From Pseudobdellovibrionaceae bacterium (GTDB lineage Bacteria > Bdellovibrionota > Bdellovibrionia > Bdellovibrionales > JAMPXM01), in the NCBI GenBank assembly GCA_016791465.1, contig JAEUWE010000216.1:1-17589 (forward strand): a DNA stretch of 17,589 nt, read 5' to 3'. Shown piece after piece: positions 1 to 17,589 of this stretch. Numbering within the stretch: position 1 is the stretch's first letter; every line of letters starts with the position of its first letter. The position numbers were made by a program, and so were the translations under genes. The notes under the pieces are model-generated. The model was given only the letters and a program-made list of their open reading frames with translations, was not told the origin of the DNA and made no database searches.

Positions 1-32
1 GAGGCCTGTGATCGATCCGGGTGTCAGCAGTT

Positions 33-767
33 TCACGCAGCCTCATCAATGGGTGGTTGATCTGAGCGTTCGGCCGAAATGTCTAGGCTTCCTAGCCAGA
101 ATGCTCGGTGTGGAGCGGATGTTGCGACGTCGCGAATCATCTTATCCAATTGCAGATCGGCCATTGTCCAAGAGTAAACAATGGCCGGTGGCTGTGAGTG
201 GGCAAGTAGTATGAGGCGGTCATTTGCTCTCGTTCGAAAGCTATTGACTGAAACATTCACATTGCTATCGAGTCCTAGAAGTTGTCCAGGAAGAGGCGTC
301 AGTGGTGTTCCGTTTTTTTGCTCCGAACAATCGAGAGAGAGATCGGTTTTCGACTCAAGGGAAAGCAGAGTTTGATTCTTTCGTGCGAGGAGGACGTTGG
401 GGCCGCCAACCTGAACCCAGCAAAGCTCGTTGCCCGATAAGGTGAGAGCAAGTAGCTCGACGCCGACGTGGTATTCGTCGCGGTTGTCCTCTCGATAGAG
501 CATATCGTTAGCGAGGAGAGCTGCAATGCGTAGATTGTTTGCGGCATCAGAAAGGCATGAAAGTTTCGGCAATGGCGAAGTTGCCTCCTTGTCCTGGGAT
601 GCGAATGCCAGGAATTCCAAGACACGGTCGATCACCTTCCTTGCGCCCGATCGAGGGCCCCATGGAACTGCGACGATGAGTGTATTGAGCGACGCTTCGA
701 AGTGAACTTCGGGTGTCGGGCGAGGCTGTTTTCCAGAATAAGGCCGATGCTGAAAATCGAACTTCAT
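33..767 (-). CDS. PP2C-like protein, probably catalytically inactive (pseudophosphatase candidate); last gene of the FHA operon
   Basis: 244-aa ORF. Its ATG (767-765) overlaps the upstream stop by 4 nt (ATGA). By-eye alignment to bacterial PP2C (PrpC/Stp type) is colinear. LIVAVPWGPRSG sits where xxVADGMGGH is expected. VGVELLALTLSGNELCWVQVGGPNVLL sits where MGTTxVxxxxxGxxxxxAHVGDSRxYL is expected. DRLILLAHSQ sits where GDxLLLCSDGL is expected. The metal-binding Asp positions are not conserved. Confidence 0.55.
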   Translation of the reverse strand: MKFDFQHRPYSGKQPRPTPEVHFEASLNTLIVAVPWGPRSGARKVIDRVLEFLAFASQDKEATSPLPKLSCLSDAANNLRIAALLANDMLYREDNRDEYHVGVELLALTLSGNELCWVQVGGPNVLLARKNQTLLSLESKTDLSLDCSEQKNGTPLTPLPGQLLGLDSNVNVSVNSFRTRANDRLILLAHSQPPAIVYSWTMADLQLDKMIRDVATSAPHRAFWLGSLDISAERSDQPPIDEAA

Positions 768-2770
768 GTGCCCTGATCCGAATAGTTGCGAAGTTTCATT
801 TTAGACTTCAGATAGTATTCACCATCCGTCGTATCGCGATCCATGATTTGTCGCCACTTGCTCTGTGCTTCCTTCACTTGTCCAACGCCTTCATAGAGAA
901 TGGCGTCTTCGTACAGCGTACGCAGTTGTGAATTGAGTTCTTTCCTTACGCGAGCAATAAACTCCGCAGCCTTCTCGCTCTTTGGATCAAACTCTTTGGC
1001 GCGTCTTGCGCCCTCGAGGGCGTCTTTGAAGTTTCGACTCTGGTAGGCCGCGTTGGCCGACGCGAGTGCTTCATCGACTTTTGTTGCAAGCATTGACTTA
1101 ATTTTTACAATATTTTGCTGAGAGCGTGTTTTGAGTCCATCGGGATCCGGCATTTGCGATGCGATGTGCTTATTGAACGCGTCGATTGCCGGATACCACT
1201 GACCTTGTCGTTGTAGGGCAAGGGCTTTCTCATGAAGCTCGCGACCGCGATCAACTTTGTCTTGGTAGTCGCGATGTGCTGAGAGCTTTGATGTGCGTTC
1301 GCCAACTCGTTTTTCGACCCGACCGATCAAATCGATAACCAGGGGATTGGTGGGATCGAGTCCGATCGTGGGCGAAAGACACTGACGAATCTCATCGACA
1401 CTAAATGTGCGGTTGGCGATTGGATTGCATTGTTGAATATTGCGATCGATGATGCGTTTTTGTTCTTCCACACGTTTCTGTTCGGCCTCAATGAAGGCTA
1501 ATTTCTCGGCGTTGGCGCGCTGAGCGAGGCAGTCCTCCTCCATTGTCTTTGATCCTTCGTAACCTTCCGGTAGAATTTCGTGGAGTTTTTTGAGCTGCTC
1601 GTAGGCGTTCTCAAACTTGCCTTGCATGTAGAGATTGCGAGCTGTGACATAGATCTCTTTAATAGTCTGCTTTTGCTGTGCGGAGAGTCGCTCAATTCCG
1701 TTTCCGGGATCGTTTGTCTTGCTGCTCTTGTTGTCGGAGTCAGGGCCAAAAGCGGCATAGAGTCCGATGACCGCAATCGCAAGAATTGCGGCCAGACGGA
1801 TGGTTTTCGCTTTCGAGTTTTTCTTACTGCTGTCGGCTGACCATTCGGCCCCATAGTTGTCGATGCGAACCGCGCCGCCAGGTCCTTGTAGGACGGGATA
1901 GTTGATCATCTCGTACTGAGCGACCGGAGCGAGTGGTGCCGCGAGCACGTTTGGCGCAATCGCGACTAGGCGCTTTTCAAAATTCGGATCACGAACCTCA
2001 AAGTGGACCTTCAAGGCATTGACTGAAAGAACGTCACCGCTTTGTAGGAGGTGGGGTTCTTCGGGAATCAAAGGCGTGCCGTTGAGAACGGTGCCATTGG
2101 CGCTTCCGAGATCGGTGACAAAGTATCCTTCAGGAGTCGATGTGATCTCAAACTGTCGTCGACTTGCCTTACGGTCCGGAAGAAAGATGTCGCAAGTGTC
2201 CTCGCGCCCGGCGAGCCACTTCTTTCCATCAAGATCGATGCGCTGTTCACTTCCGCTGCTTTTCACAATTCGAATCGAAGGCCGTCCTGGGAGCGAAACG
2301 CCGACGTTGGTGGCATCATCATTTCCCTCAAATGAGGGCTGTGGATGTTGTGGCGCCGGAACCAGCGAGAGTGTGCCGCCAGGATGAGCGGGAGGCGCCG
2401 ACGGGGCGTCGTCAGCGAAGTTCTCAGCGCCGACGGCGGCAGACCGGCTGGTCGGAACTGCGGCAGAAATCGCGGACGACTCTTCGACGATACGGAAGTC
2501 ATAAGCCGCGACGTTGAAGACACTTGTTGGCGTGAGCTCAACCTCAGCCGTCGCTTGGCCAGCAACAATGATTTCACCGAACTTCGATAGAACGGAGGCC
2601 TTCCAGACGCCGTCGATTTCGGCGACTTTAAAGTGCTGTCGGGAGATTCCAGGTTGTTCTTGTAATTGGATGGCGCAACCATCGGCACGTCCGATGATGT
2701 ACTCCTCGCCAGAGCGCAACTGGATCGAAGCGATTTCCTTACCATGGAGAAAGGCTTTGAGGATTGGCAT
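764..2770 (-). CDS. Dual-FHA, single-pass membrane protein with a large C-terminal (predicted periplasmic) TPR-like helical-repeat domain
   Basis: 668 aa. FHA1 is about aa 1-95 (IIGRADGCAIQL...GISRQHFKV). A Pro/Ala-rich linker follows. FHA2 is about aa 165-260 (LAGREDTCDIFL...ASRRQFEI...DLGSANGTVLNGTPL). The TM segment is about aa 324-342 (IRLAAILAIAVIGLYAAFG). Helical repeats come next (ARNLYMQGKFENAYEQLKKL; ALALQRQGQWYPAIDAFNKH; AYQSRNFKDALEGARRAKEFDP). The ATG overlaps the upstream stop by 1 nt (TAATG). Confidence 0.85.
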   Translation of the reverse strand: MPILKAFLHGKEIASIQLRSGEEYIIGRADGCAIQLQEQPGISRQHFKVAEIDGVWKASVLSKFGEIIVAGQATAEVELTPTSVFNVAAYDFRIVEESSAISAAVPTSRSAAVGAENFADDAPSAPPAHPGGTLSLVPAPQHPQPSFEGNDDATNVGVSLPGRPSIRIVKSSGSEQRIDLDGKKWLAGREDTCDIFLPDRKASRRQFEITSTPEGYFVTDLGSANGTVLNGTPLIPEEPHLLQSGDVLSVNALKVHFEVRDPNFEKRLVAIAPNVLAAPLAPVAQYEMINYPVLQGPGGAVRIDNYGAEWSADSSKKNSKAKTIRLAAILAIAVIGLYAAFGPDSDNKSSKTNDPGNGIERLSAQQKQTIKEIYVTARNLYMQGKFENAYEQLKKLHEILPEGYEGSKTMEEDCLAQRANAEKLAFIEAEQKRVEEQKRIIDRNIQQCNPIANRTFSVDEIRQCLSPTIGLDPTNPLVIDLIGRVEKRVGERTSKLSAHRDYQDKVDRGRELHEKALALQRQGQWYPAIDAFNKHIASQMPDPDGLKTRSQQNIVKIKSMLATKVDEALASANAAYQSRNFKDALEGARRAKEFDPKSEKAAEFIARVRKELNSQLRTLYEDAILYEGVGQVKEAQSKWRQIMDRDTTDGEYYLKSKMKLRNYSDQGT

Positions 2771-3744
2771 TAGAACCGCCCCTCTTGAAGCACGTCACAT
2801 TCTTTCTTCATTGCCTCAGCCTGCTTGTACTTAAGGTCCTCTTTGTTGTTCATAAGTAAAAGCGCTTTCTCGAGCGCCGATGAACAGCGAGCGTACATAT
2901 TTTTTTCGAGATAGCGACGCCCTTCGAGCGTGAGTTGTGTTACGGACTCGTCGCGCTGTTTCTCGGCCAGCCTGTAGTAGCGAAGTGCAAGCTGATGTTC
3001 GGGGTCGATTGCTCGAGCCGTTTCAAAAGATCTCATTGCTCGTGAGTAGCTACCTTTTTGATAGTCACGAAAGCCTTCGAGATAATGTCGCTGGGCCTCT
3101 TCGTATCGGGTTTTCTCTTCCTCGGTTCTAAAGGTTCTCTTTTTTGCGGCCGTTGCGGTGCGGGCGTCGCTTTCAGAGATTTCTTTCTCGATTTCAGAAG
3201 TCGTCTTAAGCCCCTTATCGAGTTTTCTCGAAGTGCTGTCGGACATTCCAATATAGACCATGCCGCCGATGATTCCGGTCATGATGAGGTAGAACATACC
3301 TTTGCCGGATTTCTGAGGTCGGACGTTCTTGACTTGCGGTGTGGCGGAGTTCGCCGCGCCGCCCATAACCGAAAGTGATGGAACACCGGGAACGGCCTGT
3401 GGAGCAAGAAGATGCATGGCTTCGACAATGAAGGCGAGTTCTGACTCGCCGATGCGAATCATATCTCCGCCTTTGAGCGGCTGCTGCTCAGCATGCCGGC
3501 CGTTGACGGTCAGCTTTGCTTTACCACTAATGTCGTGAATAGTGATTTCTTCGGGAGTGAATTCGATCACGGCCGCATTTCGGCTCACGCGCGGGTCGTT
3601 GAGAACGACATTGTTCGATGTTGGATCACGGCCGATTGTGACTCTCGGAGGCAAAAGCTGATAGGTCGCGCCAGCATCGGGGCCACCGCGAACAGCAATT
3701 GTGAATTTGAATCCCGTACGAGGGATCGCCGGAGCCAAAGTCAC
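2770..3744 (-). CDS. FHA-domain single-pass membrane protein with a C-terminal TPR-like domain; shorter paralogue-like version of the 668-aa protein
   Basis: 324 aa with a GTG start at 3744. The SD GGAGGG is formed by the last codons of the upstream gene, 9 nt spacing. FHA is about aa 12-107 (VTIGRDPTSNNVVLNDPRVSRNAAVIEF...LTVNG...GDMIRIGESELAF). TM is about aa 149-167 (MFYLIMTGIIGGMVYIGM). TPR-like helices follow (YLEGFRDYQKGSYSRAMRSFETARAIDPEH). Confidence 0.8.
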   Translation of the reverse strand: MTLAPAIPRTGFKFTIAVRGGPDAGATYQLLPPRVTIGRDPTSNNVVLNDPRVSRNAAVIEFTPEEITIHDISGKAKLTVNGRHAEQQPLKGGDMIRIGESELAFIVEAMHLLAPQAVPGVPSLSVMGGAANSATPQVKNVRPQKSGKGMFYLIMTGIIGGMVYIGMSDSTSRKLDKGLKTTSEIEKEISESDARTATAAKKRTFRTEEEKTRYEEAQRHYLEGFRDYQKGSYSRAMRSFETARAIDPEHQLALRYYRLAEKQRDESVTQLTLEGRRYLEKNMYARCSSALEKALLLMNNKEDLKYKQAEAMKKECDVLQEGRF

Positions 3745-3750
3745 TACCGT

Positions 3751-5430
3751 TTACCCTCCACTTCTTTGCAGCACGACCAAATACCAACCGGCTTCGCCCG
3801 AGTGATTGAGAACGGCTTGGCCATTGATTTCATATTTCTCACCAGAGAAAGGGATCTCGCTAAAGGCAATTGATCCCATCTGTTCGCGCATTCGCGGAAG
3901 CAGTTCACGCAAGTTCGCTTGGAGCGCTGGATCTGGAACTTCGTTTACAGATCGACCAACGAGAGCACCTGCTGATCCGATGAGATGATCGAAAGCACTA
4001 TTAGTTGCGATGACGCGATCGTCGATGGCATTGATACTCAGTGCGGGAGTGTTCAACATGCGAACGACATTTGAGGCCTCGATGTCTCGATTGATGACAC
4101 CGCCACTGACGCCCCCGAATGCCTGGCCGCTGCCATTGGCGGCGCGGTTCAGCGCCGAGTTCACATTCGAAATCAGCTTTTCAAGCAGTGGATACTGATA
4201 GGGAGTTGCTAGATCATCGCGCCCTTCGCGAAGGGCATCGTTGAGCTGCGTGCTGAGCAGTTCGACTGGATGTTCGACGACACGGCTGAGAAAGAAAAAG
4301 AGAACACCGCCGAGCAGAGCTGCGACAAGGAAGATTTGCAGAAAGAGTCCCATGGTCTGTGCAGGACTCATCGCCATCGATCCCATGTCGTATAGAACGA
4401 CAGAATAGGCGGCGGCCTCTTGTGAGCCGGTGTCGGGATTGTAGCGCGAGATGGGAACCGCAACACCAAGTGTTGAGTCGCCTGTGAATCCATCGGTTTC
4501 TCGCTCTTCGCGTCGCGCTTGATTAACAAAAGGCATTTTGGCGAACTCGCCACGTTTATTGGCGGGCGCGAGAATTGTTCCGTCTTTATTGATGATAACG
4601 GCCGTTGATACGCCTTCTTCAAGTTCGGCCAGTCGAACTGTGACCGCCACCTCGTTTTTCTCAAGGATGGCTTGGCGGTTGATAGCGGCGAGGTTGCGGG
4701 CAATTGTTTTTGCCCGACGGATGCTTTCTTGGCGAATGCTCGACTTGGTCAAGGTCACCATCGGAATCGTCGCGACAAACGTCAATACAACGGCATAAAT
4801 AGCAATCAGAAGGAGTAGGCCCTGACGGTAATTCATGCGTTGAATAAGACTGTAAATCCCAGGCATAGCGACGTGATCAAGATAGAGTCGCAGATTCTCG
4901 AGTAGATCGAAGAGAGCGTTTCCGCTCGAAGCCACTCGGGGACGTGCATCATGTTCGACTTCAGCATGGACTTCTTGGGCGACCTGCGCGCTGGGATCTG
5001 GATAGGCTTGCGCAGCCATCGGATGCTGTTGAACGGGCATGGCGAGGGCGCCATTGCCAGCCCACGCCGGCATCGGGGCAAGACCATTCTGCATGTTTTG
5101 AACATGACGAGGATCAACTCCGGCCGGAAGCTTCAGAATATCAATAATGAGGTCATGAAATGTGAGCTTGTCTCCGGCTTGTAACTTTTGATTTTGAACG
5201 CGAAGACCATTAACGAACGTGCCGTTGCGTGAATTCATGTCGGTGATAATGACTTTACCATCGTCGGTGACAAGAACGGTCGCATGCTCTTTAGAAACTG
5301 CATTCGAGGCCAGTTTGATCTGACAGTTTGGGCTGCGGCCGATGACGTTGTATCCCACAGTGAGCGGCATGATTTGTCCGGCCTGTGGTCCGCTGAGGAC
5401 TCGGATGGCCCAGGTTTCACGACTCGACAT
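3751..5430 (-). CDS. FHA-domain two-pass membrane sensor-like protein (FHA / TM / periplasmic domain / TM / HAMP-like helix / PAS-like C-terminus) with no kinase or other recognisable output domain
   Basis: 559 aa. SD AGGAG lies 9 nt upstream of the ATG at 5430. A canonical FHA is at aa 6-100 (VIGRSPNCQIKL...AVSKEHATV...DMNSRNGTFVNG). A Pro/Gln/Ala low-complexity linker follows. TM1 is about aa 204-226, a loop of about 130 aa spans 227-358, and TM2 is about aa 359-381. An amphipathic HAMP-like segment covers 382-430. The C-terminal alpha/beta region 445-556 resembles PAS (ALSINAIDDRVIATNSAFDHLIGSAGALVGRSV...YEINGQAVLN...GWYLVVLQ). Confidence 0.8.
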   Translation of the reverse strand: MSSRETWAIRVLSGPQAGQIMPLTVGYNVIGRSPNCQIKLASNAVSKEHATVLVTDDGKVIITDMNSRNGTFVNGLRVQNQKLQAGDKLTFHDLIIDILKLPAGVDPRHVQNMQNGLAPMPAWAGNGALAMPVQQHPMAAQAYPDPSAQVAQEVHAEVEHDARPRVASSGNALFDLLENLRLYLDHVAMPGIYSLIQRMNYRQGLLLLIAIYAVVLTFVATIPMVTLTKSSIRQESIRRAKTIARNLAAINRQAILEKNEVAVTVRLAELEEGVSTAVIINKDGTILAPANKRGEFAKMPFVNQARREERETDGFTGDSTLGVAVPISRYNPDTGSQEAAAYSVVLYDMGSMAMSPAQTMGLFLQIFLVAALLGGVLFFFLSRVVEHPVELLSTQLNDALREGRDDLATPYQYPLLEKLISNVNSALNRAANGSGQAFGGVSGGVINRDIEASNVVRMLNTPALSINAIDDRVIATNSAFDHLIGSAGALVGRSVNEVPDPALQANLRELLPRMREQMGSIAFSEIPFSGEKYEINGQAVLNHSGEAGWYLVVLQRSGG

Positions 5431-5755
5431 AGAGTTGATCTCCTGGGTTGAGGGTTAGGGGCAGAGTGCCGGCCGCAACTTCAATGACGCTTGTGGCTTT
5501 GAGACGTGGCAACGTTACTCTCCATGGCGGCAAATTGCGGTAGACGTGAATAACGTGCAGCGAGCTATCGACAAAGACGGCGTCGATGGCGAATCGCATA
5601 AACCAAGTGTGGATTGAGTTGCAGCGTTTGATCCAGAGACCTTGATTTTCGGGTAACGAGGCGCGGCCGAGCAGACCCTTGCTTCGTTGTGCAAATGAGC
5701 TTGCGACTTCGAGTTCGCTCACGACCACGGTGCCATTGTGGAGAAGGCGCATCAC
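5417..5755 (-). CDS. DUF192 / UPF0127 (COG1430) family protein
   Basis: 112 aa. Family-typical motifs are present: A..F.QRSKGLLGR..L....GLWI..CNSIHTWFMRFAIDAVFVD...V......LPPWR......A..VIEV.AG......PGD. The start is either GTG 5755 (4-nt overlap with the tadC-like stop) or ATG 5752 (1-nt overlap, TGATG). Confidence 0.8.
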   Translation of the reverse strand: MMRLLHNGTVVVSELEVASSFAQRSKGLLGRASLPENQGLWIKRCNSIHTWFMRFAIDAVFVDSSLHVIHVYRNLPPWRVTLPRLKATSVIEVAAGTLPLTLNPGDQLYVES

Positions 5756-6657
5756 TGTCCACCTCCATAAATAAACTGCAGCGCAACCGGTGCGAAGACC
5801 ATGATGAAAACGGCCGGCAAGATAAACACGACGAGTGGAATCAGAATCTTCTGCGAAGCTTTGGCTCCTTCTTTTTCTGCGCGCACAAATCGCTCAAGAC
5901 GCATCTGTGCTGATTGATCCTTTAAGACGCGTGCGATGCTGACGCCGGTTGCATCAGAGTCGATCACGACGTTGACCAGTGACTTGATCTCGGGGACATC
6001 GCATCGATTGTCGAGGCCGCGCAGAGCTTCGGCTCTGGAGCTGCCGAGAGTGATGTCGCGCAAGACCTGGTTGAACTCGCCAGCCAAGACGCTGTCGGCG
6101 TTTGCCTTTTCAACAATAGCCTGAATGGCGCCTTGGAAGTCTTTTCCGGCTTCAACGGCAAGCGCCATGAGATCAACAAAGAACGGTAGCTCGGTGATCA
6201 TCGAGCTCTGGCGGTCAGAGCGCATTTTCTTTGCGTGCGAGTCCGGCATACCCCAGCCAATCAATGCGAAAAACAAAAATACGGGCACGGGATAGTTCAA
6301 CTGTAAGGCAAAGTTCAGCACGAGAGCGATGATCGGGAGCACGACACCCCAGAGCAATTTTAGTCCAATGAATTCGTCGACGTTGAGCTCGGCGGTGAGA
6401 CCTGACGTGATGAGCTTGTGTTCAATTTTTTTGCGCCACCGCGGATCTTTAAAGCGAACGGCATAGTGAATTGTAAATTGATGAACGAGCGATCTTGAGA
6501 TCTCAATGAGTTTCGACTTGGATTTTTCTGGTGCATTGCCCGAGGCCCAGGACAGCGCTTGCATTCCTTCGTCCTTCGCAAGCAGCGACGAGACAAAGAA
6601 ATACACCGACACACCTGTGACAAGGATGAGGACCATCGGTAGTAAATCACTTCCCAT
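5752..6657 (-). CDS. TadB/TadC-family (type II secretion system F domain) pilus-assembly platform protein; first gene of the operon
   Basis: About 301 aa. It has an N-terminal TM, a central TM pair, and a T2SSF-type helical domain (ELPFFVDLMALAVEAGKDFQGAIQAIVEKA...LGSSRAEALRGLDNRC.VPEIKSLVNVVIDSDATGVSIARVLKDQSAQMRLERF..AEKEGAKASQKILIPLVVFILPAVFIMVFAP). The track start at 6660 is TTG. I prefer ATG at 6657, which has SD GGAAGG 6 nt upstream. Confidence 0.8.
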   Translation of the reverse strand: MGSDLLPMVLILVTGVSVYFFVSSLLAKDEGMQALSWASGNAPEKSKSKLIEISRSLVHQFTIHYAVRFKDPRWRKKIEHKLITSGLTAELNVDEFIGLKLLWGVVLPIIALVLNFALQLNYPVPVFLFFALIGWGMPDSHAKKMRSDRQSSMITELPFFVDLMALAVEAGKDFQGAIQAIVEKANADSVLAGEFNQVLRDITLGSSRAEALRGLDNRCDVPEIKSLVNVVIDSDATGVSIARVLKDQSAQMRLERFVRAEKEGAKASQKILIPLVVFILPAVFIMVFAPVALQFIYGGGQ

Positions 6658-6685
6658 CAATCACCTTCCGTGATGTAAGAGAGAC

Positions 6686-8008
6686 ATGAATGTTCGCAGT
6701 CTCGTTTTGGCATCGCAGTCGCCACGTCGAAGACAAATCCTTTCGTTGGCAGGGTTCGAGTTCGACATCCTCCCTTCTCAAATATCGGAAATTCCCGATG
6801 AAAACCTGAATCTGGCGCAGCAAATTCGACAGCTGGCTCATGACAAGGCCGAGGCCTGTCTCAAAATGAGAAAGCCATTGAAAGGACAGGGGGTTTTGAT
6901 CCTTGCGGCCGACACGATGGTGGCCTTGGCTGGCCAAACATTGGGCAAGCCGAAGGACGAGAATCAAGCGCGTCAATTTCTTAAGCAGCTCTCTGGCCAG
7001 ACTCATGTCGTGCTCACTGGACTTTCGCTCTATGACGTCGACACGGATACCTGGGCTGAGTCTGTTGTCGAAACCAAGGTGTATTTTCGCGAGCTGACGG
7101 CTCAAGAAATCGAGCACTATGTTCGTTCGGGTGATCCGATGGACAAGGCTGGTGGCTATGGTATTCAGGGCGAAGCCGGCGCTTTCGTTCAGCGAATTGA
7201 AGGGCCGTTCGATAATGTCGTTGGACTTCCTATCGACGAGTTGAAACGTCTGCTTGTCGAGAATCGATGGCAGATTCGCAGGCGAGTTTCATCGGTACAA
7301 GAAGGTCTCCTCAGTATCCGCCAACAGATTTCGAACGCCTGCATCCAATTTCATCGGGCGCCGTCGAGCGTGAAGCTGATCGCGGTTTCGAAGACGAAAT
7401 CTGCGGAAGCCGTGATGGAGGCGGTCTTGGCGGATCAGCTGGAGTTTGGTGAGAACTACGCTCAAGAGGCTGTGGATAAGCAAGTGGAGATTGCACAGTT
7501 GCAGCAGATCGCCGGTATCGACCGAAAAGTGAATTGGCACTTTATCGGTGGTCTCCAAAGCAAGAAGGTCAAGGCGGTCGTTGGGTCGTTCGTGTTGATT
7601 CATTCTGTCGACCGCGAATCATTGGTTTTAGAAATTGAAAAGCGCGCGGCCGAAAAGGAGATAGTGCAGGACATTTTGCTTCAGGTGAATATAGCGAACG
7701 AAGAGACAAAGTCGGGAGCGAGTGTTCAGGATTTTACCTCGCTTGTCGACCTGGCTGCTCGTCAGTCTCACATTCGAATCTGCGGTATTATGGCACTGCC
7801 ACCGCTGGTTGAAGACGAGGTGTTGGCGCGCCGGCAGTTTGCTGAAGTTCGCGCCGTTTTTGAGTTGGCCAAGCGTCGTCTTTCAATCGAGCAACAGCGG
7901 TCTTTCACCGAAATGTCGATGGGAACAACGCATGACTTTGCGGCCGCCATTGCAGAGGGCGCGACGATGGTTCGTGTGGGGACGGCGATCTTCGGAGCTC
8001 GGCAGTAG
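6686..8008 (+). CDS. maf-yggS: Fusion protein: Maf-family nucleoside-triphosphate pyrophosphatase (N-terminal, about aa 1-190) plus YggS/YlmE-family PLP-binding protein (C-terminal, about aa 200-440)
   Basis: Single uninterrupted 440-aa frame. Maf motifs: LASQSPRRRQIL, AADTMVALAGQTLGKPKDENQARQFLKQLSGQTHVVLTG, DKAGGYGIQGEAGAFVQRIEGPFDNVVGLP. YggS motifs: VKLIAVSKTKSAEAV (PLP Lys), FGENYAQEA, WHFIGGLQSKKVK, IHSVD, LLQVNIANEETKSG, MSMGTTHDFAAAIAEGATMVRVGTAIFGAR. Confidence 0.9.
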   Translation: MNVRSLVLASQSPRRRQILSLAGFEFDILPSQISEIPDENLNLAQQIRQLAHDKAEACLKMRKPLKGQGVLILAADTMVALAGQTLGKPKDENQARQFLKQLSGQTHVVLTGLSLYDVDTDTWAESVVETKVYFRELTAQEIEHYVRSGDPMDKAGGYGIQGEAGAFVQRIEGPFDNVVGLPIDELKRLLVENRWQIRRRVSSVQEGLLSIRQQISNACIQFHRAPSSVKLIAVSKTKSAEAVMEAVLADQLEFGENYAQEAVDKQVEIAQLQQIAGIDRKVNWHFIGGLQSKKVKAVVGSFVLIHSVDRESLVLEIEKRAAEKEIVQDILLQVNIANEETKSGASVQDFTSLVDLAARQSHIRICGIMALPPLVEDEVLARRQFAEVRAVFELAKRRLSIEQQRSFTEMSMGTTHDFAAAIAEGATMVRVGTAIFGARQ

Positions 8009-8023
8009 GCCGAGCGTTTTTTT
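7997..8023 (+). terminator. Rho-independent terminator overlapping the maf-yggS stop codon
   Basis: GCTCGGC (7997-8003), loop AGTAG (contains the TAG stop), GCCGAGC (8009-8015), then G+T7 (8016-8023). Confidence 0.65.
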
Positions 8024-8026
8024 GAA

Positions 8027-8560
8027 CTAGTTCTGAATCAATAGTTGGCAGTTGTCGTTCTCAGAACTCAGATGCCCTTTCAAGCATGAAAAGCTGAGAG
8101 CCAGATCTTCTGTATTGAGGTACTTCATAAAGTATCCGGCGTGCTGCAGCATCGGCACATCAATAGCCTCAAAGAGAAATTGAATTGTCTGCGGTTCAGT
8201 GAGTGTCGCGCGAATCATACTCGGAGTGTATTCAACGGCAACGTGGTCGCTGCTTGAAACTTTGGCGATCTCAGCGCCACATGTGAACTTCGGACCCGAG
8301 TATTGAGCACAGTAGAAATACACCGTGCCAGAACTGTCTCTGAAGCGCTTCATCATCGCTCTTTTGCCATTCGGATCAGTGGCCATTGCTTCTGGGAATT
8401 TGAGTTTGAAGTAGATATCGTGAGCTTCTTGCGCCTGATCGATAACGATCGAAACGGTGGTCGGCGTTTCGGTGATAGCGGCTTTTGCTGGTGATCCTGT
8501 GCCCACAAGGATCAGGAGAGTGGCGGCTGTGACGAAATGGAATTTCTGAAAAGACATCAT
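8027..8560 (-). CDS. Small secreted hypothetical protein (signal peptide, 4 Cys); no family recognised
   Basis: I chose the internal start ATGATG at 8560, with GGAG 7 nt upstream. It gives MMSFQKFHFVTAATLLILVGTGSPAKA|AITE, a classic signal peptide. The longer track ORF (to 8656) would overlap the proC upstream region. Two Cys pairs are present (YFYCAQYSGPKFTCG; SFSCLKGHLSSENDNCQ). Confidence 0.6.
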   Translation of the reverse strand: MMSFQKFHFVTAATLLILVGTGSPAKAAITETPTTVSIVIDQAQEAHDIYFKLKFPEAMATDPNGKRAMMKRFRDSSGTVYFYCAQYSGPKFTCGAEIAKVSSSDHVAVEYTPSMIRATLTEPQTIQFLFEAIDVPMLQHAGYFMKYLNTEDLALSFSCLKGHLSSENDNCQLLIQN

Positions 8561-8665
8561 GATGGTGCTCCAATCGGTCGGTCTCTGTCGGTTTATCGAG
8601 GAACTCCGAAAAAAGAAATGTGTATCATTGTTGCGCGTCGCCACAAGGTCGCGCATGATGAATCA

Positions 8666-9493
8666 ATGATCTACCAAAAGATCGGCTTTATTGGGACCGG
8701 CCACATGGGCCAAGCGATGATCCAGGCATTGGCTGAAAGCGGCAAGGTTCCGGTCTCGAAGCTCTATGCGTCGAATCGATCACCGGGAAAACTCAAGCGT
8801 GTCCAAGAGCAGTTTGGAATTAACGTCGTTGCGAACAACGAAGAGCTGATCGACATCTGCGACATCGTCATTATTGCGGTCAAGCCACAAGACTTGACCG
8901 CCGTTATTGAGCCTGTGGCTTCGAGTTTTCTCCCTGGGCAGATCGTGATCTCGCTTGCCGCTGGCTACTCGCTTCGTTCGCTTCAGAAGCTACTTCCGAC
9001 GGTAAAGGGTTTGGTGCGTGTGATGCCCAATACGCCGGCAACGATTCGCCGGGCAGTGCTCGGCTACTGCATGGGCCCGGGGGCTGATATCTATGCTCCG
9101 GTTATTGAAGAACTGTTTTCGCCTCTTGGTCTTGTCGTGCCAGCGCCTGAAGGCGAGTTGTTTGAGGCGCTGACTGTGAGTTGTGGATCGGGTCCCGGCT
9201 TTATTTTTGAAGTGATGCAGTACTGGCAAGAATGGGTGGAAGAGCACGGATTTGAGCCCGACGTCGCTCGAAAAATGGTTGTTCAAACATTCTTGGGCGC
9301 GGCAGAGCTTGCGGCAAAATCAGTCGATATGCCGCTCCACGATCTCCAGGACCGGGTTGTTTCGAAAAAAGGAGTTACGGCCGCTGGACTTCAGTCGATG
9401 CGTGAACTCGAGATCGAGCGCGCGCTTCGCTATAGTTTCGAGAAGGCCGTGCTTCGCGACCAAGAATTGGCTCGCGGGACAGCGAAAGACTGA
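8666..9493 (+). CDS. proC: Pyrroline-5-carboxylate reductase
   Basis: I chose the start at ATG 8666 (MIYQKIGFIGTGHMGQAMIQAL, a Rossmann GxGxxG motif at the N-terminus; about 275 aa, typical length). Other motifs: AVKPQD, RVMPNTPA, CGSGPGFIFE, VVSKKGVTAAGL. Confidence 0.9.
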   Translation: MIYQKIGFIGTGHMGQAMIQALAESGKVPVSKLYASNRSPGKLKRVQEQFGINVVANNEELIDICDIVIIAVKPQDLTAVIEPVASSFLPGQIVISLAAGYSLRSLQKLLPTVKGLVRVMPNTPATIRRAVLGYCMGPGADIYAPVIEELFSPLGLVVPAPEGELFEALTVSCGSGPGFIFEVMQYWQEWVEEHGFEPDVARKMVVQTFLGAAELAAKSVDMPLHDLQDRVVSKKGVTAAGLQSMRELEIERALRYSFEKAVLRDQELARGTAKD

Positions 9494-9574
9494 AACTAGA
9501 CCTAGGGCCGTTGTCGAAGGTCCAGCAACTCTCGTATCCTAAATAGGTAAATCATCGGTCCCAGGGAGGGAATC

Positions 9575-10162
9575 GTGAGAATTGCTCCGATCGACATCGC
9601 TCACAAGAGCTTCAATCGCAAAGTTATGGGTCTCGATTCTGACGAAGTTGCAAACTTCCTTCGCGATATCGCGGATCAAATGGAAGAACTCATCCGTGAG
9701 CGCAATTCACTCAAAGAAATCGCTCGTCAAAAAGACATTCAGCTCATGGAGTATAAAGAGCGGGACGACACTTTGAAGGCGACACTCGCGACGGCAACAA
9801 AGATGTGTGAGCAGATTCGCCAAGATGCCGAGCGCGAAGCCAAGCTCATCATCAACGACGCCTCACAGAAGGCTGAAGTCGTGATGCGCGATGGTCGTGA
9901 TCAATTGAAGCGGCTGTATCAAGAAATCGCCGACATCAAAAAGCTTCGCATGCAGTTCGAAGGAAATTTGAAAGCGGTTTGTCAGGCGCATATCTCGATG
10001 GTTGAGTCGAGCCACATGCATCTTCCGGATCCGCAAATCAATTTGGCTCACGCGGCGAACGTCACGCATGCACAGGCGCCGAGTGCAAACCAAGCGACCA
10101 CGCCTGCTGCGGCAGCCCCGCAGCAGCAGGCCCCGCGCTTCCGCACGACGCCTAACGTGTAG
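9575..10162 (+). CDS. divIVA: DivIVA-domain cell-division / polarity protein
   Basis: GTG start at 9575 preceded by GGGAGGG. The N-terminus MRIAPIDIAHKSFNRKVMGLDSDEVANFLRDIADQMEELIRERNSLKE matches the DivIVA lipid-binding plus coiled-coil signature. The tail is Pro/Ala/Gln-rich. Confidence 0.85.
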   Translation: MRIAPIDIAHKSFNRKVMGLDSDEVANFLRDIADQMEELIRERNSLKEIARQKDIQLMEYKERDDTLKATLATATKMCEQIRQDAEREAKLIINDASQKAEVVMRDGRDQLKRLYQEIADIKKLRMQFEGNLKAVCQAHISMVESSHMHLPDPQINLAHAANVTHAQAPSANQATTPAAAAPQQQAPRFRTTPNV

Positions 10163-10183
10163 TTCGCCCGACATCAGGACGAG

Positions 10184-10226
10184 AAAACAAAAAAGGTCCG
10201 CTTTGCCAGCGGACCTTTTTTATTTC
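10184..10226. terminator. Bidirectional rho-independent terminator between convergent divIVA and the endonuclease gene
   Basis: A-tract AAAACAAAAAA, stem GGTCCGCT (10195-10202), loop TTGCC, stem AGCGGACC (10208-10215), then T6. The A and T tracts flank the stem, so it reads as hairpin plus U-tract on both strands. Confidence 0.85.
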
Positions 10227-10244
10227 AGCCATTCAATGAGTGCA

Positions 10245-11129
10245 TTAGAAGTCGGAGATTTCCTCGACGAGTTCTGGATGGTCGATGAAAGGATTGCGGT
10301 TGCCTTGCACCTTGTAAATCGTTTCGTTCCGCTCTTGCTCAAAGGTATCGGCCGGGTCTTGGCGATGCCACTTTCTCAAGAAGGCCTCTTCTGTTGGGTC
10401 GATTTCGATGTGATATCGAACCGAGAAGTAAAAGAGGGCGCGAGCAACGTTACCCTTATGCGCGTTTGGTGGTTCAAAGTAGTCTTCTGAGCGGCCCTGA
10501 ACGGTACCGAACTTTGACGAGTTTGAGCAGGGGAGCGGTCGATCTGGAACGTCGACTTCGGCAAACTTATGATTTCCGCGAATCGAGTTCATTTGTGAGT
10601 GCGTTGGGTAGAGGTGGTGAAGATCGCTCTTCTGTGTGTCTTTTGAGAAGGAGCGGTTGAAGCGGCTTTGCGGCCAGGTGTGCTCGGTATTGATGATCGA
10701 GTCTTGTGGGGTTTTTCCAGGGCCGACTTGATCGGATCCGCCGAAGTCGCGATTCGTGAATTCTTTCTCGCAATAGACGTCGCGAACAGCGTAGTTGCCT
10801 GGTGAGCCAGAGAGATGGATCTGCCCCATGAGAACTCGGCGCGCAGCGCTGTAGCCAATGGGTTGGTGCGAGTAGCAGTCGCGACCTGCGGTGTCGCAGT
10901 TGGCGTTCACGGAGTCTGGTGCTCCACTGTTGCGTTGATGGCGCGATTCGAGAATGTCCTGGAGTTCTTGGATGAGCTCTTTGTCGCGTTTGCCGGCTGC
11001 GACATGGCTGTAGAATTCGCTACCGTAGTAGGGAATTTGCTTGGTGAGCGTAACAGCCGAAGCTGTCGACACCATGCAAAGGATTGAAAAGAGCCAAGAA
11101 ACCCTAAACAGAACGTTCGAATACTTCAT
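10245..11129 (-). CDS. Secreted endonuclease I family nuclease (EndA/Vvn/Dns-like)
   Basis: I chose the start at ATG 11129 (MKYSNVLFRVSWLFSILCMVSTASA, a signal peptide; a G6 SD-like run lies 6 nt upstream). The track start at 11162 is TTG. Family motifs: NTEHTWPQSRF, DLHHLYPTHSQMNSIRGNHKF, KGNVARALFYFSVRY, QGNRNPFIDHPELV. Confidence 0.85.
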   Translation of the reverse strand: MKYSNVLFRVSWLFSILCMVSTASAVTLTKQIPYYGSEFYSHVAAGKRDKELIQELQDILESRHQRNSGAPDSVNANCDTAGRDCYSHQPIGYSAARRVLMGQIHLSGSPGNYAVRDVYCEKEFTNRDFGGSDQVGPGKTPQDSIINTEHTWPQSRFNRSFSKDTQKSDLHHLYPTHSQMNSIRGNHKFAEVDVPDRPLPCSNSSKFGTVQGRSEDYFEPPNAHKGNVARALFYFSVRYHIEIDPTEEAFLRKWHRQDPADTFEQERNETIYKVQGNRNPFIDHPELVEEISDF

Positions 11130-11220
11130 CCGACGCCCCCCTTTGGAAATTGGTTTAAGCAAACGGTTCGCACGGCGGCAAGAATAAGAGTTTTAGGATT
11201 GTGTTGTGACGCATCGCGCA

Positions 11221-12024
11221 TCACGGTTTTGTGCCCAGAGTTTCGGCAAAGAAGCTGCGCATCGCGATCCACGAGCGCTTTGCCGCCTGTTCATTGTAGG
11301 CCGCACCCTTTGAGTTGTCGTTTCCGGCCTCCTTTTCGGTGAAGGAGTGAACCGCGCCTCCGTATTGGATGAGCTGCCAGTCGACTTTATTCTTTCTCAT
11401 TTCATCTTCGAATGCGGCGAGGTCAGCGGCTGCGACAAACGGATCGTCAGCACCGTGGAGCGCGAGGATGCGTCCTTTGATGCGGGCGCCGTCGGCCGGC
11501 TTTGGAGAATCGAGTCCACCGTGAAAGCTGACAAAGGCTTTCGCATCAGCACCGGCGCGCGCAAGTTCGATGGCGGCCGTTCCTCCGAAACAATAACCAA
11601 TGACGGCGATTCTATTCTTATCGACCTGCGGTTGTTCTTTGATCAGCTTAAGGCCTCGCTGCATACGATTGCGCAGACTCGTGCGGTCTTTTTTGAAGCC
11701 GCCCGCAAGTGCGCTGGCTTCTTCTGCGTTCTTTGGACGAACATCCTTTCCATAAATGTCGACGGCCACGGCGACAAAGCCCTCTTGAGCGAGGCGCTCG
11801 ACGACTTCTTTGGTCTGATTCGTTACGCCCATCCAGTTGTGGGCGACGAGAACGCCCGGGAGTGGGCCTTTGAGTTGATCGTCGTAGGCGATTAGGCCTT
11901 CAAATTTTTTTCCGACCATATTGTATTCGATGGAGCGACTGACGATGGCCGACTGAGCGATGTCGTGAAAACCAGTGACGAATGCGACTGAGGCGATCAG
12001 GAGAGACAGATCTTTGATAGTCAT
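11221..12024 (-). CDS. Dienelactone hydrolase family protein (alpha/beta hydrolase), probably exported
   Basis: 267 aa. Hydrophobic N-terminus (LSLLIASVAFVTGFHDIAQSA). PGVLVAHNWMGV and the nucleophile motif IGYCFGG (GxCxGG is typical of DLH). HGADDPFV and a C-terminal GAVHSF. The start lies 4 nt after the yggU-like stop. Confidence 0.85.
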   Translation of the reverse strand: MTIKDLSLLIASVAFVTGFHDIAQSAIVSRSIEYNMVGKKFEGLIAYDDQLKGPLPGVLVAHNWMGVTNQTKEVVERLAQEGFVAVAVDIYGKDVRPKNAEEASALAGGFKKDRTSLRNRMQRGLKLIKEQPQVDKNRIAVIGYCFGGTAAIELARAGADAKAFVSFHGGLDSPKPADGARIKGRILALHGADDPFVAAADLAAFEDEMRKNKVDWQLIQYGGAVHSFTEKEAGNDNSKGAAYNEQAAKRSWIAMRSFFAETLGTKP

Positions 12025-12028
12025 AAGA

Positions 12029-13412: not shown

Positions 13413-13459
13413 TGCCCTCAAGTTAGCATCGAATGCCTGGTCGCGGTATGTTGAAATAA

Positions 13460-15045: not shown

Positions 15046-15354
15046 ATGTCTGGGTTCGAGTCGTGCTGTATGGCGTCCCGTCGGGAACTGCGCCGTCGGC
15101 TTTTCATCGTAGTTCTTCTGGCATTGGCGGCTCTTGCGGCGACCCAGTATTGGGGCCAGCATCGGGCTCATGTGGATCCCGGTCCGTCTGACGAGCGATC
15201 AGAGACAAAGATGCCCATAGAAAAGGCGCCTTTGCATACGAGTGATGATCTGGTCGACCTTGGCATTGGTCCCGAGGGCGATGGGCCAAGGCCTGAAGAC
15301 ATGGTCGCCGAAGCCCAAAAAGCTTTAGCTCAAGGCCTTGAAGCGCGGCCCTAA
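15046..15354 (+). CDS. Small N-terminally anchored membrane protein (hypothetical)
   Basis: 102 aa from ATG 15046. It has a positive-inside cluster and a TM (SRRELRRRLFIVVLLALAALAATQYW), then an acidic Pro/Gly/Asp-rich tail. It sits 39 nt upstream of valS on the same strand. There is no homology support. Confidence 0.4.
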   Translation: MSGFESCCMASRRELRRRLFIVVLLALAALAATQYWGQHRAHVDPGPSDERSETKMPIEKAPLHTSDDLVDLGIGPEGDGPRPEDMVAEAQKALAQGLEARP

Positions 15355-15393
15355 CGTTTGAGCCTGCCGGCGCAAGCGAGTAGACTTACAGGA

Positions 15394-17589
15394 ATGAGCA
15401 ACCAACTCCCTGATCGCTACAATGCCGCTGACGTTGAATCTCGAATCTACAAATGGTGGGAAGAGGCCGGCCACTTTAAAGCCGCTGACCAGAGCAAGAA
15501 GCCGCCGTTTGCCATCATCCTCCCTCCGCCCAACGTCACCGGTCAGCTGCACATGGGCCACGCTCTTGATCACACGATTCAAGATCTGATCGTTCGTTGG
15601 AAGCGCATGTCGGGCTTCAACACGCTCTGGCTTCCGGGCACGGATCACGCGGGTATTGCGACGCAGTCCGTAGTTGAGCGCGAACTTCGAAAAGAAAATA
15701 AATCGCGGCGTGAAATGGGTCGTGAGCCTTTTGTTGAAAAGGTTTGGGAGTGGAAGCACCAGTACGGCAATCGCATTTACGAACAGATGCGCCGGCTTGG
15801 AGATTCTTGCGATTGGGAGCGCGCGACGTTCACACTTGATGACGGTGTTTCGACGGCTGTTCGAAAAGTGTTCGTCGATCTCTATAAGCGAAACATGATC
15901 TATCGCGGGACACGCCTTGTGAATTGGTCGGGGCCGCTTGAGACTGCGATCTCGGATCTTGAAGTTGAGCACAAGGAAACAAAAGGTACATTGTACCATA
16001 TCGCATACTCGGTTGATGGCGATCCGTCGACGAAGCTTGTGGTGGCGACAACGCGACCTGAGACGATGCTTGGCGATACGGCAGTCGCAGTTCATCCCGA
16101 AGACGAGCGCTACAAAAAGTTGATCGGTCGTCGCGTGAAGCTCCCGCTCACCGATCGCACGATTCCAATCGTGGCCGATGCCTATGTCGACAAAGAATTT
16201 GGAACGGGTGTGGTGAAGATCACGCCTGCGCATGACTTTAACGACTACCAAGTCGGTGTTCGTCACAAGCTTGAGATGATCAACATCTTGAATAAAAACG
16301 GCACGCTCAACGAGAACGCCGGCCGCTTTAGCGGCCTGAAGGTTCAAGAGGCGCGGAAACAGGTTTTGGCGGCTTTGAAAGAGGCCGAACTGGTTCTGAA
16401 AGAAGAGCCGCATGTTCACTCGGTGGGCTATTGCTCGCGTTCGGGTGCTGTTGTTGAACCGTTTTTGAGCGAGCAGTGGTTTGCGCGCATGTCGCAGATG
16501 GCGACGGCCGCTCGTCACGTGGTTGAGAACGGTTCGATTCGCTTTGAGCCCGAGTCGTGGACGAAGGTTTATCTCCACTGGATTTCGATCATTGAAGACT
16601 GGTGTATCTCGCGCCAGCTGTGGTGGGGGCATCGGATTCCCGCATGGACATGTGCTGACTGCCATCACGTGACAGTTGCAGAAGCGGATCCAGCGGCGTG
16701 TGAGAAGTGTCAGTCAAAGAACATCAAGCAAGATGAGGACGTGCTCGACACGTGGTTCTCGTCAGCGCTGTGGCCGTTCAGCACAATGGGCTGGCCAAAA
16801 GACACTGAGACGCAGAAGACGTTCTATCCGACGGATGTTTTGGTCACCGGCCACGATATCATTTTCTTCTGGGTCGCGCGCATGATCATCATGGGCCTGG
16901 AGTTTAAAAAAGATGTTCCGTTCCGCAAAGTCTATATCCACGGATTGGTACGCGACTCCGATGGCAAGAAGATGTCCAAGTCGACCGGCAATGCGCTTGA
17001 TCCCGTCGAGCTGATCGAGAACTACGGTGCCGATGCTCTGCGCTTTACGATTCTTGCGCAGATCGCTTCGGGTCGAGATTTGAAGTTTAGCGAAAGCCGT
17101 CTTGAGGGCTATCGCAACTTTATGAATAAGATCTGGAACGCGACTCGTTTTGCGATGAATGCACTGGGCGATTTTGAAGTGCCCAAAGAGGGAACTCGCG
17201 CGGTTCCTCCGAAGTCCGAGCTATCGGTCGCTGATCAGTGGTTGGTTTGGGAAACGGCACAGGTGGAGAAAGCCGTTGAGGAGCATCTCGCACAGGATCG
17301 CTATAGCGACGCGGCGAATGCGCTCTATCAGTTTGTTTGGAACGAGTTCTGCGATTGGTATCTTGAGTTTGTGAAGCCGATTATCTACGGACAGACCGGC
17401 TCCGCGAGTGAAAAGAAAGCGACGCAGCTGGTTCTAGCGCAGACGTTGAATCGTATCATGCGTCTGCTCCACCCGTTCACGCCCTTCATCACTGAAGAGA
17501 TTTATCAAAAGCTTCCGATTCGCGGAGAGGCTTGTATTGTCGATCAGTATCCGACCGTGAAGAACGACAAAGAGTGGCTCTCGGTTGGC
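15394..17589 (+). CDS. valS: Valine--tRNA ligase, 5' partial (732 codons; continues past the window end)
   Basis: Not in the supplied track because it has no in-window stop. I translated it by hand from ATG 15394: MSNQLPDRYNAADVESRIYKWWEEAGHFKA...PPFAIILPPPNVTGQLHMGHAL (HIGH motif), WLPGTDHAGIATQ, TTRPETMLGDTAVAVHPED, ISRQLWWGHRIPAW, DVLDTWFSS, GKKMSKSTGN (KMSKS motif at 16969-16983, in frame with 15394). Confidence 0.95.
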   Translation, partial: MSNQLPDRYNAADVESRIYKWWEEAGHFKAADQSKKPPFAIILPPPNVTGQLHMGHALDHTIQDLIVRWKRMSGFNTLWLPGTDHAGIATQSVVERELRKENKSRREMGREPFVEKVWEWKHQYGNRIYEQMRRLGDSCDWERATFTLDDGVSTAVRKVFVDLYKRNMIYRGTRLVNWSGPLETAISDLEVEHKETKGTLYHIAYSVDGDPSTKLVVATTRPETMLGDTAVAVHPEDERYKKLIGRRVKLPLTDRTIPIVADAYVDKEFGTGVVKITPAHDFNDYQVGVRHKLEMINILNKNGTLNENAGRFSGLKVQEARKQVLAALKEAELVLKEEPHVHSVGYCSRSGAVVEPFLSEQWFARMSQMATAARHVVENGSIRFEPESWTKVYLHWISIIEDWCISRQLWWGHRIPAWTCADCHHVTVAEADPAACEKCQSKNIKQDEDVLDTWFSSALWPFSTMGWPKDTETQKTFYPTDVLVTGHDIIFFWVARMIIMGLEFKKDVPFRKVYIHGLVRDSDGKKMSKSTGNALDPVELIENYGADALRFTILAQIASGRDLKFSESRLEGYRNFMNKIWNATRFAMNALGDFEVPKEGTRAVPPKSELSVADQWLVWETAQVEKAVEEHLAQDRYSDAANALYQFVWNEFCDWYLEFVKPIIYGQTGSASEKKATQLVLAQTLNRIMRLLHPFTPFITEEIYQKLPIRGEACIVDQYPTVKNDKEWLSVG

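Follow-up and report, generated by a model that had tools for sequence, protein, structure and literature searches.

Six genes in the left third of a 17,589-nt stretch of DNA from a Pseudobdellovibrionaceae bacterium (contig JAEUWE010000216.1; this whole stretch is called the window below), all encoded on the minus strand, almost certainly represent the tadC operon of this organism, orthologous to Bd0470-Bd0475 of Bdellovibrio bacteriovorus. In gene order they specify the Tad/Kil platform protein TadC, a DUF192 protein, three membrane proteins with FHA domains, which we denote by length as FHA559, FHA324 and FHA668, and a 244-aa protein with a PP2C fold. As a unit this operon is already known and is not a discovery of ours: a preliminary description of the same DNA could not place the combination as characterised, but it corresponds to Bd0470-Bd0475, for which transposon sequencing (Tn-seq), complemented mutants and a two-hybrid partner of Bd0474 have been published. 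Our comparisons assign the FHA module to the Tad/Kil machine, and the explanation that we consider probable overall is that the operon products serve as a phospho-dependent accessory module or regulator of this machine. For the switch of this pilus machine from attachment to the killing or invasion of prey, the neighbours of tadC/kilH are the foremost candidate genes. What interest the operon still has resides in its mechanism and in the predictions that we add, the new elements being a putative pseudophosphatase, a predicted kinase-less sensor combining an FHA domain with a WalK-like layout, the conservation of arginine and serine in the FHA pockets, and a seventh, radical S-adenosylmethionine (radical-SAM) gene.

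The tadC operon and its counterparts

The six window proteins (MBL7687845.1-MBL7687850.1 at NCBI, annotated as Bdellovibrionaceae, now Pseudobdellovibrionaceae) share with the products of Bd0470-Bd0475 their number, order, strand and similar sizes, at 31-55% amino-acid identity, and the flanks also agree, with divergent maf/yggS-proC-divIVA neighbours upstream and a convergent sulfatase gene downstream in B. bacteriovorus. The window differs in an extra coupled radical-SAM gene, found at 8 loci only, and in the loss of a histidine and an asparagine from the FHA domain of FHA324. To search genomes for the operon a 26-sequence TadC alignment proved too diverse, and a narrower one returned 80 loci, all of them in Bdellovibrionota, whose synteny was assessed by tblastn with the window proteins. 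At 55 of the 57 loci with enough flanking sequence all six genes are collinear on one strand, an outcome that bears out the expected conservation of the neighbourhood. These include B. bacteriovorus YOA24 (locus L048), whose TadC is 55% identical to that of the window and where tadC is followed by open reading frames (ORFs) of 116, 565, 387, 684 and 228 aa, in agreement with the published HD100 sizes of Bd0473 (386 aa), Bd0474 (674 aa) and Bd0475 (228 aa). The closest genome match to the window TadC is only 79% identical.

The reading frames, their strand and every junction were confirmed by reading the sequence directly (coordinates in Table 1). tadC and the DUF192 gene overlap by 4 nt at GTGA (1 nt if the second gene starts at ATG), the DUF192 gene and FHA559 share 14 nt, FHA559 and FHA324 are separated by a 6-nt gap preceded by GGAGGG, FHA324 and FHA668 overlap by 1 nt in TAATG, and FHA668 overlaps the last gene by 4 nt in ATGA. 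This tight order is not due to chance: 55 of 57 related genomes keep the genes collinear, and the near-zero junctions are conserved among the related loci. The description of a six-gene operon holds for the six coupled genes and falls short in that a seventh, the radical-SAM gene, is coupled to them in this lineage. A scan for promoters and terminators yielded nothing exceeding shuffled expectation: no internal terminator was found, nor any sigma-70-like site above chance. Since the starts of tadC and of the divergent maf-yggS gene are only 25 bp apart, the promoter of each must lie inside the coding region of the other gene, that of tadC within maf. As first described, no ORF of the window resembles a Hanks kinase, TadA, a secretin or Flp, and neither tadB nor tadA stands next to tadC there. 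The PADLOC defence models have zero matches among the six operon proteins.

Work on B. bacteriovorus 109J/HD100 ties the operon to predation. For KilH, the platform protein of the Kil system, Bd0470 is listed as the ortholog in B. bacteriovorus and is the reciprocal-best hit (Seef et al. 2021 eLife). A transposon mutant in this gene (Bd0470::tn) fails to attach to, kill or round prey, whereas Bd0474::tn, affected in an FHA protein encoded in operon with tadC, attaches without killing or rounding; both were complemented (Duncan et al. 2019 mBio). Tn-seq fitness values of 0.002-0.03 for each gene from Bd0470 to Bd0475 mark all of them as predation-essential, as is the PknG-like kinase Bd3148 (Duncan et al. 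2019, Data Set S4). Bd0470-Bd0475 have been stated to form one operon, the interaction of Bd0474 with Bd0075 was confirmed by bacterial two-hybrid, and binding between Bd0473 and Bd0475 was predicted with an interface predicted template modelling score (ipTM) of 0.60 (Front Bioinform 2025, PMC12034629). The name "tadC locus" is likewise in print, with its FHA, TPR and PAS neighbours and its position apart from the other tad genes (tad locus 1); a tadC deletion was unobtainable, and TadC-mCherry localises with RomR at the invasive pole (Tesseur et al. 2026 bioRxiv). None of these genes is mentioned in the proximity-labelling study of RomR, supplements included.

TadC is a T2SSF-family protein (PF00482, E=7.9e-14, 52.1 bits against a cutoff of 25.2) that starts at TTG 6660 or, more likely, at ATG 6657 (301 aa, as in the NCBI annotation), downstream of the Shine-Dalgarno-like GGAAGGTGA. 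Its hydrophobic segments (1-29, 94-135 and 267-301) describe a polytopic inner-membrane protein, and its homologs carry the name "tight adherence protein C". Some of them have an N-terminal extension of 120-265 aa (P0256, P0261, P0269, P0287, P0299, P0303; L149, L153, L160, L161); when the long homologs (400-530 aa) were examined for an N-terminal FHA fusion none was found, the extension being devoid of any recognisable domain.

The DUF192 gene comes immediately after tadC at 79 of the 80 genome loci and at 29 of 32 distant loci from metagenomes, and its product is recognised by PF02643 (E=2.6e-19, 69.6 bits, cutoff 27) and resembles PDB entry 3m7a (5.9e-5). By hydropathy it contains neither a hydrophobic segment nor an N-terminal signal peptide, which is at odds with the "has signal sequence" entry for Bd0471 in a table of Duncan et al. 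2019. Indeed, the DUF192 proteins of the operon, the B. bacteriovorus ortholog included, begin directly with the conserved fold and carry no hydrophobic leader. The DUF192 literature offers no function and records a recurrence in the tad operon of a Firmicute (Bulleidia).

The distant loci come from a scan of metagenome contigs that used TadC representatives sharing 32-37% identity with the window TadC; the ORFs of these loci were then searched with hidden Markov models of the orthologs. Among the 32 with enough flank a sensor-type FHA gene occurs at 28, both TPR-type FHA genes at 28 and a detectable PP2C-like gene at 18. At L087 (Ga0228536_1000272, 336-16486) a same-strand array encodes a TadG-like protein, RcpC, a secretin, a TadZ(ParA/MinD)-TadA fusion resembling the atypical TadZA of Bdellovibrio, TadB, TadC, DUF192 and three FHA proteins, so that tad locus and tadC block are contiguous. 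The tail of this array holds a 562-aa TPR protein and then a second TadA paralog. L162 (Ga0207996_1000515, 472-16155) runs from two TadE proteins through a TadG-like protein, RcpC, a secretin, a KilF-like FHA-TadA, TadB, TadC, DUF192, an FHA protein and a 2xFHA-TPR protein to two Hanks Ser/Thr kinases (Pkinase, 8e-60 and 9e-59), one with an NHL beta-propeller and the other with a TPR region like that of FHA324; no PP2C-like gene is present in this array. At L147, L150 and L166 the order RcpC-TadB-TadC-FHA-FHA/TPR is the one reported for kilB-kilG-kilH-MXAN_4649-MXAN_4648. The "orphan" tadC of Bdellovibrionales is therefore best read as the result of a split in a once-contiguous tad cluster. 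The FHA module is ancient, physically joined to complete tad clusters in some lineages, and its operon can include Hanks kinases. The early proposal of a Tad/Kil-like machine encoded elsewhere in the genome is well supported by these joined clusters (L087 and L162), by the orthology of Bd0470 to KilH and by the separation of Bd0470 from tad locus 1.

FHA membrane proteins, the PP2C-fold protein and a proposed role

The domain assignments first made for the operon all hold. Pfam recovers T2SSF, DUF192 and four FHA domains on three membrane proteins, as well as the TPR regions, and gives no profile match for PP2C. In FHA559 (FHA, PF00498, E=3.9e-18, 66.1 bits, cutoff 20.7) the FHA domain at residues 1-101 is followed by a disordered linker (112-166), a first transmembrane (TM) segment (201-229), a PAS/Cache-like alpha/beta domain (about 250-350), a second TM segment (356-387), HAMP-like helices (about 386-432) and a PAS-like domain (448-556), as read from hydropathy and an AlphaFold2 (AF2) model with a mean predicted local distance difference test (pLDDT) of 75.5. 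The FHA domain is predicted to be cytoplasmic and the PAS/Cache-like domain periplasmic; Pfam also gives the protein a weak sCache_3_2 match. The top Foldseek match of the model is WalK (9a5d, E=2.4e-12, 384 columns), with numerous FHA structures such as GarA, OdhI and Bdellovibrio DgcB (6hc1) behind it, and NF033092 matches residues 205-396 weakly; model and WalK match uphold the HAMP/PAS-like assignment originally given to this protein. Neither HisKA (DHp) nor HATPase_c is found by Pfam, and the model terminates in the PAS-like domain. FHA559 thus has the predicted architecture of the input module of a sensor kinase, an FHA domain standing in for the kinase core.

FHA324 (FHA, E=2.7e-12, 47.4 bits against 20.7; Yop-YscD_cpl, 3.2e-15) and FHA668 (FHA in two stretches, E=1.1e-23, 83.8 bits against 20.7) each have one TM segment by hydropathy, at 149-168 and 321-345, and a C-terminal TPR region, detected by TPR_2 in the former and by ANAPC3 and TPR models in the latter. 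They were considered as recent paralogs and rejected as such, since BLASTP aligns the FHA region only (E=0.005). In each of the four FHA domains the arginine (GR) and serine (S(R/K)) of the phosphothreonine (pThr) pocket reach at least 90% conservation across 66-75 orthologs. The domain of FHA559 is fully canonical, with GR, SKxH and SxNG motifs at least 90% conserved, and is the only one with the full set.

The 244-aa protein, for which hydropathy gives no TM segment, is modelled with high confidence (pLDDT 89.6, predicted template modelling score 0.87), and Foldseek assigns the model to the PP2C fold, the best match being tPphA (E=3.2e-14, TM-score 0.67-0.69), accompanied by PstP, PppA (6jkv), SpoIIE and RsbX. 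No Pfam or NCBIfam model, PF00481, PF07228 and PF13672 included, matches its sequence even at E<=1, and a family profile retrieved nothing from the PDB sequences. Its homologs, about 174 in number, all lack both a functional name and a Pfam domain; those few that are labelled with a taxon come from metagenome-assembled genomes of Bdellovibrionales. Catalytic residues were compared by aligning the family profile to PstP, with a reference sequence identical to PDB 2cm1; global hhalign collapsed, the informative approaches being local hhalign and the fold search. PstP R20 aligns with the invariant R16 of the family, whereas the metal ligands are replaced: ADGMGG (D38/G39) by VPWGPR (P35/W36), IGDSR (D118) by VGGPN (G122), LLCSDG (D191) by LLAHS (H190, arginine in some homologs), and GPDNVT of the last strand (D229) by RAFWLG, with no acidic residue near 222-226. 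These substitutions are kept family-wide (31 homologs), and no arrangement of the alignment brings the aspartates back. Lacking the metal-binding aspartates, the protein is, we conclude from fold model and alignment, a likely PP2C-fold pseudophosphatase, in line with the degenerate PP2C first proposed. The most conserved feature of the family is an invariant loop of low model confidence, D59-x-E-A-T63-S-P-(L/F), which could fit the pT-x-x-hydrophobic ligand of an FHA domain.

That the protein is instead an active, atypical Ser/Thr phosphatase, resetting the pThr marks read by the FHA domains as PppA does for Fha1, seems quite unlikely to us. Its fold, the presence of PppA among the top structural matches and the Phyre2 note "serine phosphatase / SpoIIE" for Bd0475 (Duncan et al. 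2019, Data Set S4) are compatible with activity, as are R16 in the place of the phosphate-binding R20 of PstP and a set of invariant residues (D59, E61, E93, N95, E98, E104, D142 and D183) that could build a different site; the family-wide loss of the ligands and the complete lack of PP2C, SpoIIE and PP2C_2 profile matches and of PDB sequence matches argue the contrary.

The phospho-dependent accessory role that we favour could operate as follows. The predator has a single, essential pilus machine of the Tad/Kil type, in which TadC is almost certainly the second platform subunit of the inner membrane and whose remaining parts (TadZA, TadB, RcpA/C and Flp) are encoded elsewhere. The five co-translated partners of TadC may form an accessory inner-membrane module at the TadB/TadC platform, a mechanism that we infer with even confidence for and against. 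Three membrane proteins would hold FHA domains, their phosphate-binding arginine and serine intact, in the cytoplasm, while their TPR or PAS/Cache-type sensor domains would contact envelope proteins in the periplasm, as the pairing of Bd0474 with Bd0075 might exemplify. FHA559 could relay a periplasmic or envelope cue, e.g. prey contact, to phospho-dependent protein binding. The pThr ligands would be made by Ser/Thr kinases encoded elsewhere, perhaps Bd3148, or within the operon as at L162, and the PP2C-fold protein would most likely act not as an enzyme but as an adaptor or decoy, bound to an FHA protein or to a phospho-site. With TadC already required for attachment, the module would act afterwards, in prey killing and rounding. 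The conserved arginine and serine of four FHA domains and the two Hanks kinases at the end of the L162 operon support phospho-reading, and the phosphothreonine-reading scaffold suggested in the preliminary description may capture this function.

It is tempting to go further and speculate on a reader-only device of the predatory Tad pilus, although we hold this more specific version to be unlikely. The FHA-WalK-like sensor and a dead PP2C that docks on, or shields, FHA or pThr sites would together license killing and invasion after attachment. The dead PP2C would occupy the operon position taken by the Hanks kinases in L162, docking through its flexible EATSP(L/F) loop (pT-x-x-L/F) or through a vestigial phosphate-binding arginine, and in the clade of the window the coupled radical-SAM enzyme might add a further modification step.

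Several observations weigh against a phospho-dependent role. The pocket histidine and asparagine are lost from the FHA324 copy of the window, where arginine and serine are kept; the asparagine is phenylalanine in the N-terminal domain of FHA668 and the histidine is glutamine in its C-terminal domain. All FHA domains match PF16697 (Yop-YscD_cpl; 52-66 bits, cutoff 33.2), a model that includes FHA folds that do not bind phosphate groups, and the window and nearly all Bdellovibrionota loci are devoid of a kinase; of all 161 loci examined, 160 have none. The alignment between PstP and the 244-aa family is weak (local hhalign, E=0.21 and 0.004), making the residue mapping approximate and in part a matter of secondary-structure register. 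As to the mutants, the Tn-seq phenotypes of upstream genes may be exaggerated where transposon insertions act in a polar manner. The Bd0474 mutant is of class II and that of tadC of class I, which leaves room for a function of the module in a different step or a different machine. Phosphorylation, the pairing of FHA domains with ligands and contact with TadB, TadC or TadZA are what we infer for these proteins.

The main rival explanation dispenses with phosphorylation altogether. It makes the FHA-TM-TPR proteins fixed components of the Tad/Kil basal body with a ring or alignment function, comparable to SctD (YscD/PrgH) of type III secretion systems (T3SS), and their FHA folds would be ordinary protein-protein modules that dock the ATPase or the platform. 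This scaffold, which we regard as doubtful, would account for the PF16697 matches above cutoff in every domain, for the loss of histidine and asparagine in two of the four domains and for the kinase-less loci, and it draws further strength from Foldseek matches to YscD (4a0e) and to the T3SS protein 4d9v, from the PrgH-like annotation of MXAN_4649 by HHpred (Seef et al. 2021 eLife) and from the SctD-like succession of FHA domain, TM segment and periplasmic domain. It does not readily explain why arginine and serine are so well conserved in four domains, one of them fully canonical, nor the kinases of the L162 array and the co-conservation of a PP2C-fold protein. Moreover, the full-length SctD model TIGR02500 stays far under its cutoff (19.4-32 bits against 86, with matches to the FHA-like domain only), and the periplasmic regions consist of TPR or PAS/Cache domains in place of ring-building motifs. 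We thus retain the phospho-dependent reading, for which the comparative data supply mutable residues and partner predictions that can be taken to B. bacteriovorus.

The seventh gene and the neighbourhood

Table 1. Features of the operon and of the remainder of the window
Feature	Position	Strand	Evidence or remark
tadC, Tad/Kil inner-membrane platform protein, T2SSF family	5752..6660	-	PF00482
DUF192 protein, 112 aa, Bd0471 ortholog	5417..5755	-	PF02643
Predicted FHA-sensor protein (FHA559), 559 aa, Bd0472 ortholog	3751..5430	-	Pfam FHA, AF2, Foldseek
FHA-TM-TPR protein (FHA324), 324 aa, Bd0473 ortholog	2770..3744	-	FHA, Yop-YscD_cpl, TPR_2; GTG start
FHA-FHA-TM-TPR protein (FHA668), 668 aa, Bd0474 ortholog (674 aa in HD100)	764..2770	-	FHA, TPR
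Putative PP2C-fold pseudophosphatase, 244 aa, cytoplasmic, Bd0475 ortholog (228 aa)	33..767	-	AF2, Foldseek
5' end of the seventh gene, radical-SAM protein (250 aa on L001-L005)	1..36	-	GTG at 36-34, GTGA overlap
Divergent intergenic region, tadC / Maf-YggS gene	6661..6685	.	25 bp
Maf-YggS fusion, 440 aa	6686..8008	+	
ORF between maf-yggS and proC	8027..8656	-	
Gene of more than 400 aa	12345..13601	-	no Pfam match
Gene of more than 400 aa	13592..14905	+	no Pfam match
447-aa ORF	15325..16668	-	no Pfam match
Valyl-tRNA synthetase gene	15394..17589	+	KMSKS motif; runs off right edge

The seventh gene is translationally coupled to that of the 244-aa protein and is cut by the end of the window, which is also that of the contig. 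Its full ORF is available from L001-L005, metagenome contigs with identical genes (L001:5438-6190), and the product is a radical-SAM protein (PF04055, 2.3e-7, 31.6 bits, cutoff 29.5) with the CX3CX2C motif CSFDCVYC at residues 27-34. No subfamily model attains its cutoff; weak similarity to TYW1, to spiro-SPASM proteins and to a viperin-like pVip model was noted. Only 8 related genome loci contain it, each from a near relative of the window, and B. bacteriovorus lacks it, which makes this gene a clade-specific addition.

On L001-type contigs the radical-SAM gene is followed by the convergent sulfatase gene, beyond which (L001:8022-15021) lies a set of genes like those of gliding motility, with ExbB/ExbD pairs, a VWA protein and a 655-aa FHA protein that carries an AgmX/PglI TonB-like tail and gives partial GltG/GltJ matches. 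In view of these neighbours it might be asked whether the FHA/PP2C-like module controls some other process at the pole, e.g. gliding motility, type IVa pili, DgcB/cyclic di-GMP signalling or the release of prey-modifying enzymes, and shares only the tadC promoter for attack-phase timing. We deem this very unlikely. The GltG-like FHA-TonB_C gene and the Agl-like ExbB/ExbD genes do occur on the same contig about 5 kb downstream, the Bd0474 mutant still attaches where the tadC mutant does not, and an FHA-pThr switch also exists in Bdellovibrio DgcB, whose structure is among the matches of FHA559. However, the module remains translationally coupled to tadC in 55 of 57 genomes and at about 28 of 32 distant loci, it stays with tadB-tadC at L087, L162, L147, L150 and L166 and in MXAN_4648-4652, and the convergent sulfatase gene parts the gliding genes from the operon. 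The gliding model NF033760 (GltG) scores 20-50 bits on the operon FHA proteins against a cutoff of 650, over the FHA region only.

On the other side of the operon, the divergent gene fuses a Maf nucleotide pyrophosphatase (1.2e-58) to a YggS-type, pyridoxal phosphate-binding Ala_racemase_N domain in one ORF. This fusion is not universal, only about 44% of the ORF being matched beside tadC in many related loci. The ORF between maf-yggS and proC has an internal methionine followed by the signal-peptide-like FHFVTAATLLILVGTGSPAKAA and no homolog at any of the 80 related genome loci; it may encode a small secreted protein specific to the lineage, or else be spurious. Further to the right, of the two genes longer than 400 aa the first has conserved counterparts at 29 related loci (that of L007 is 58% identical) and the second was found only in L007, while the 447-aa ORF is an antisense shadow of the valyl-tRNA synthetase gene, with tblastn matches in 30 loci.

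Likeness to known systems

Parts of the operon resemble better-studied systems. FHA559 follows the input half of WalK-type sensor kinases, with a TM segment, an extracytoplasmic PAS/Cache domain, a second TM segment, HAMP and a cytoplasmic PAS domain, and departs from it in its N-terminal FHA domain, in ending after the PAS domain and in having no DHp/HATPase region. The FHA-TM proteins share with T3SS SctD a cytoplasmic FHA fold, a single TM segment and a periplasmic domain, this last being built of TPRs, and differ also in retaining the arginine and serine that contact pThr.

In the type VI secretion system (T6SS) of Pseudomonas aeruginosa, PpkA, PppA and Fha1 likewise set an FHA reader and a PP2C-fold protein on an envelope nanomachine, PppA being one of the best structural matches of the 244-aa protein. 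In the operon, by contrast, the FHA proteins are membrane-anchored and have periplasmic domains, the catalytic aspartates are gone and the kinase is outside the locus; the TagH/Fha model of T6SS (TIGR03354) gives the operon FHA proteins 33-56 bits, below its cutoff of 120.25.

Kil cluster 2 of Myxococcus xanthus (MXAN_4648-4652; Seef et al. 2021 eLife), compared by gene order and domains, encodes FHA-TPR, FHA, KilH, KilG and KilB. No DUF192, sensor-type FHA or PP2C-like gene is listed for Kil, and its ATPase KilF carries an FHA domain, whereas Bdellovibrio has a TadZ-TadA fusion and the tadC of the window stands without an adjacent tadB. Both systems nonetheless place FHA and FHA-TPR genes directly behind a TadC/KilH gene, in the service of a Tad-like predation machine.

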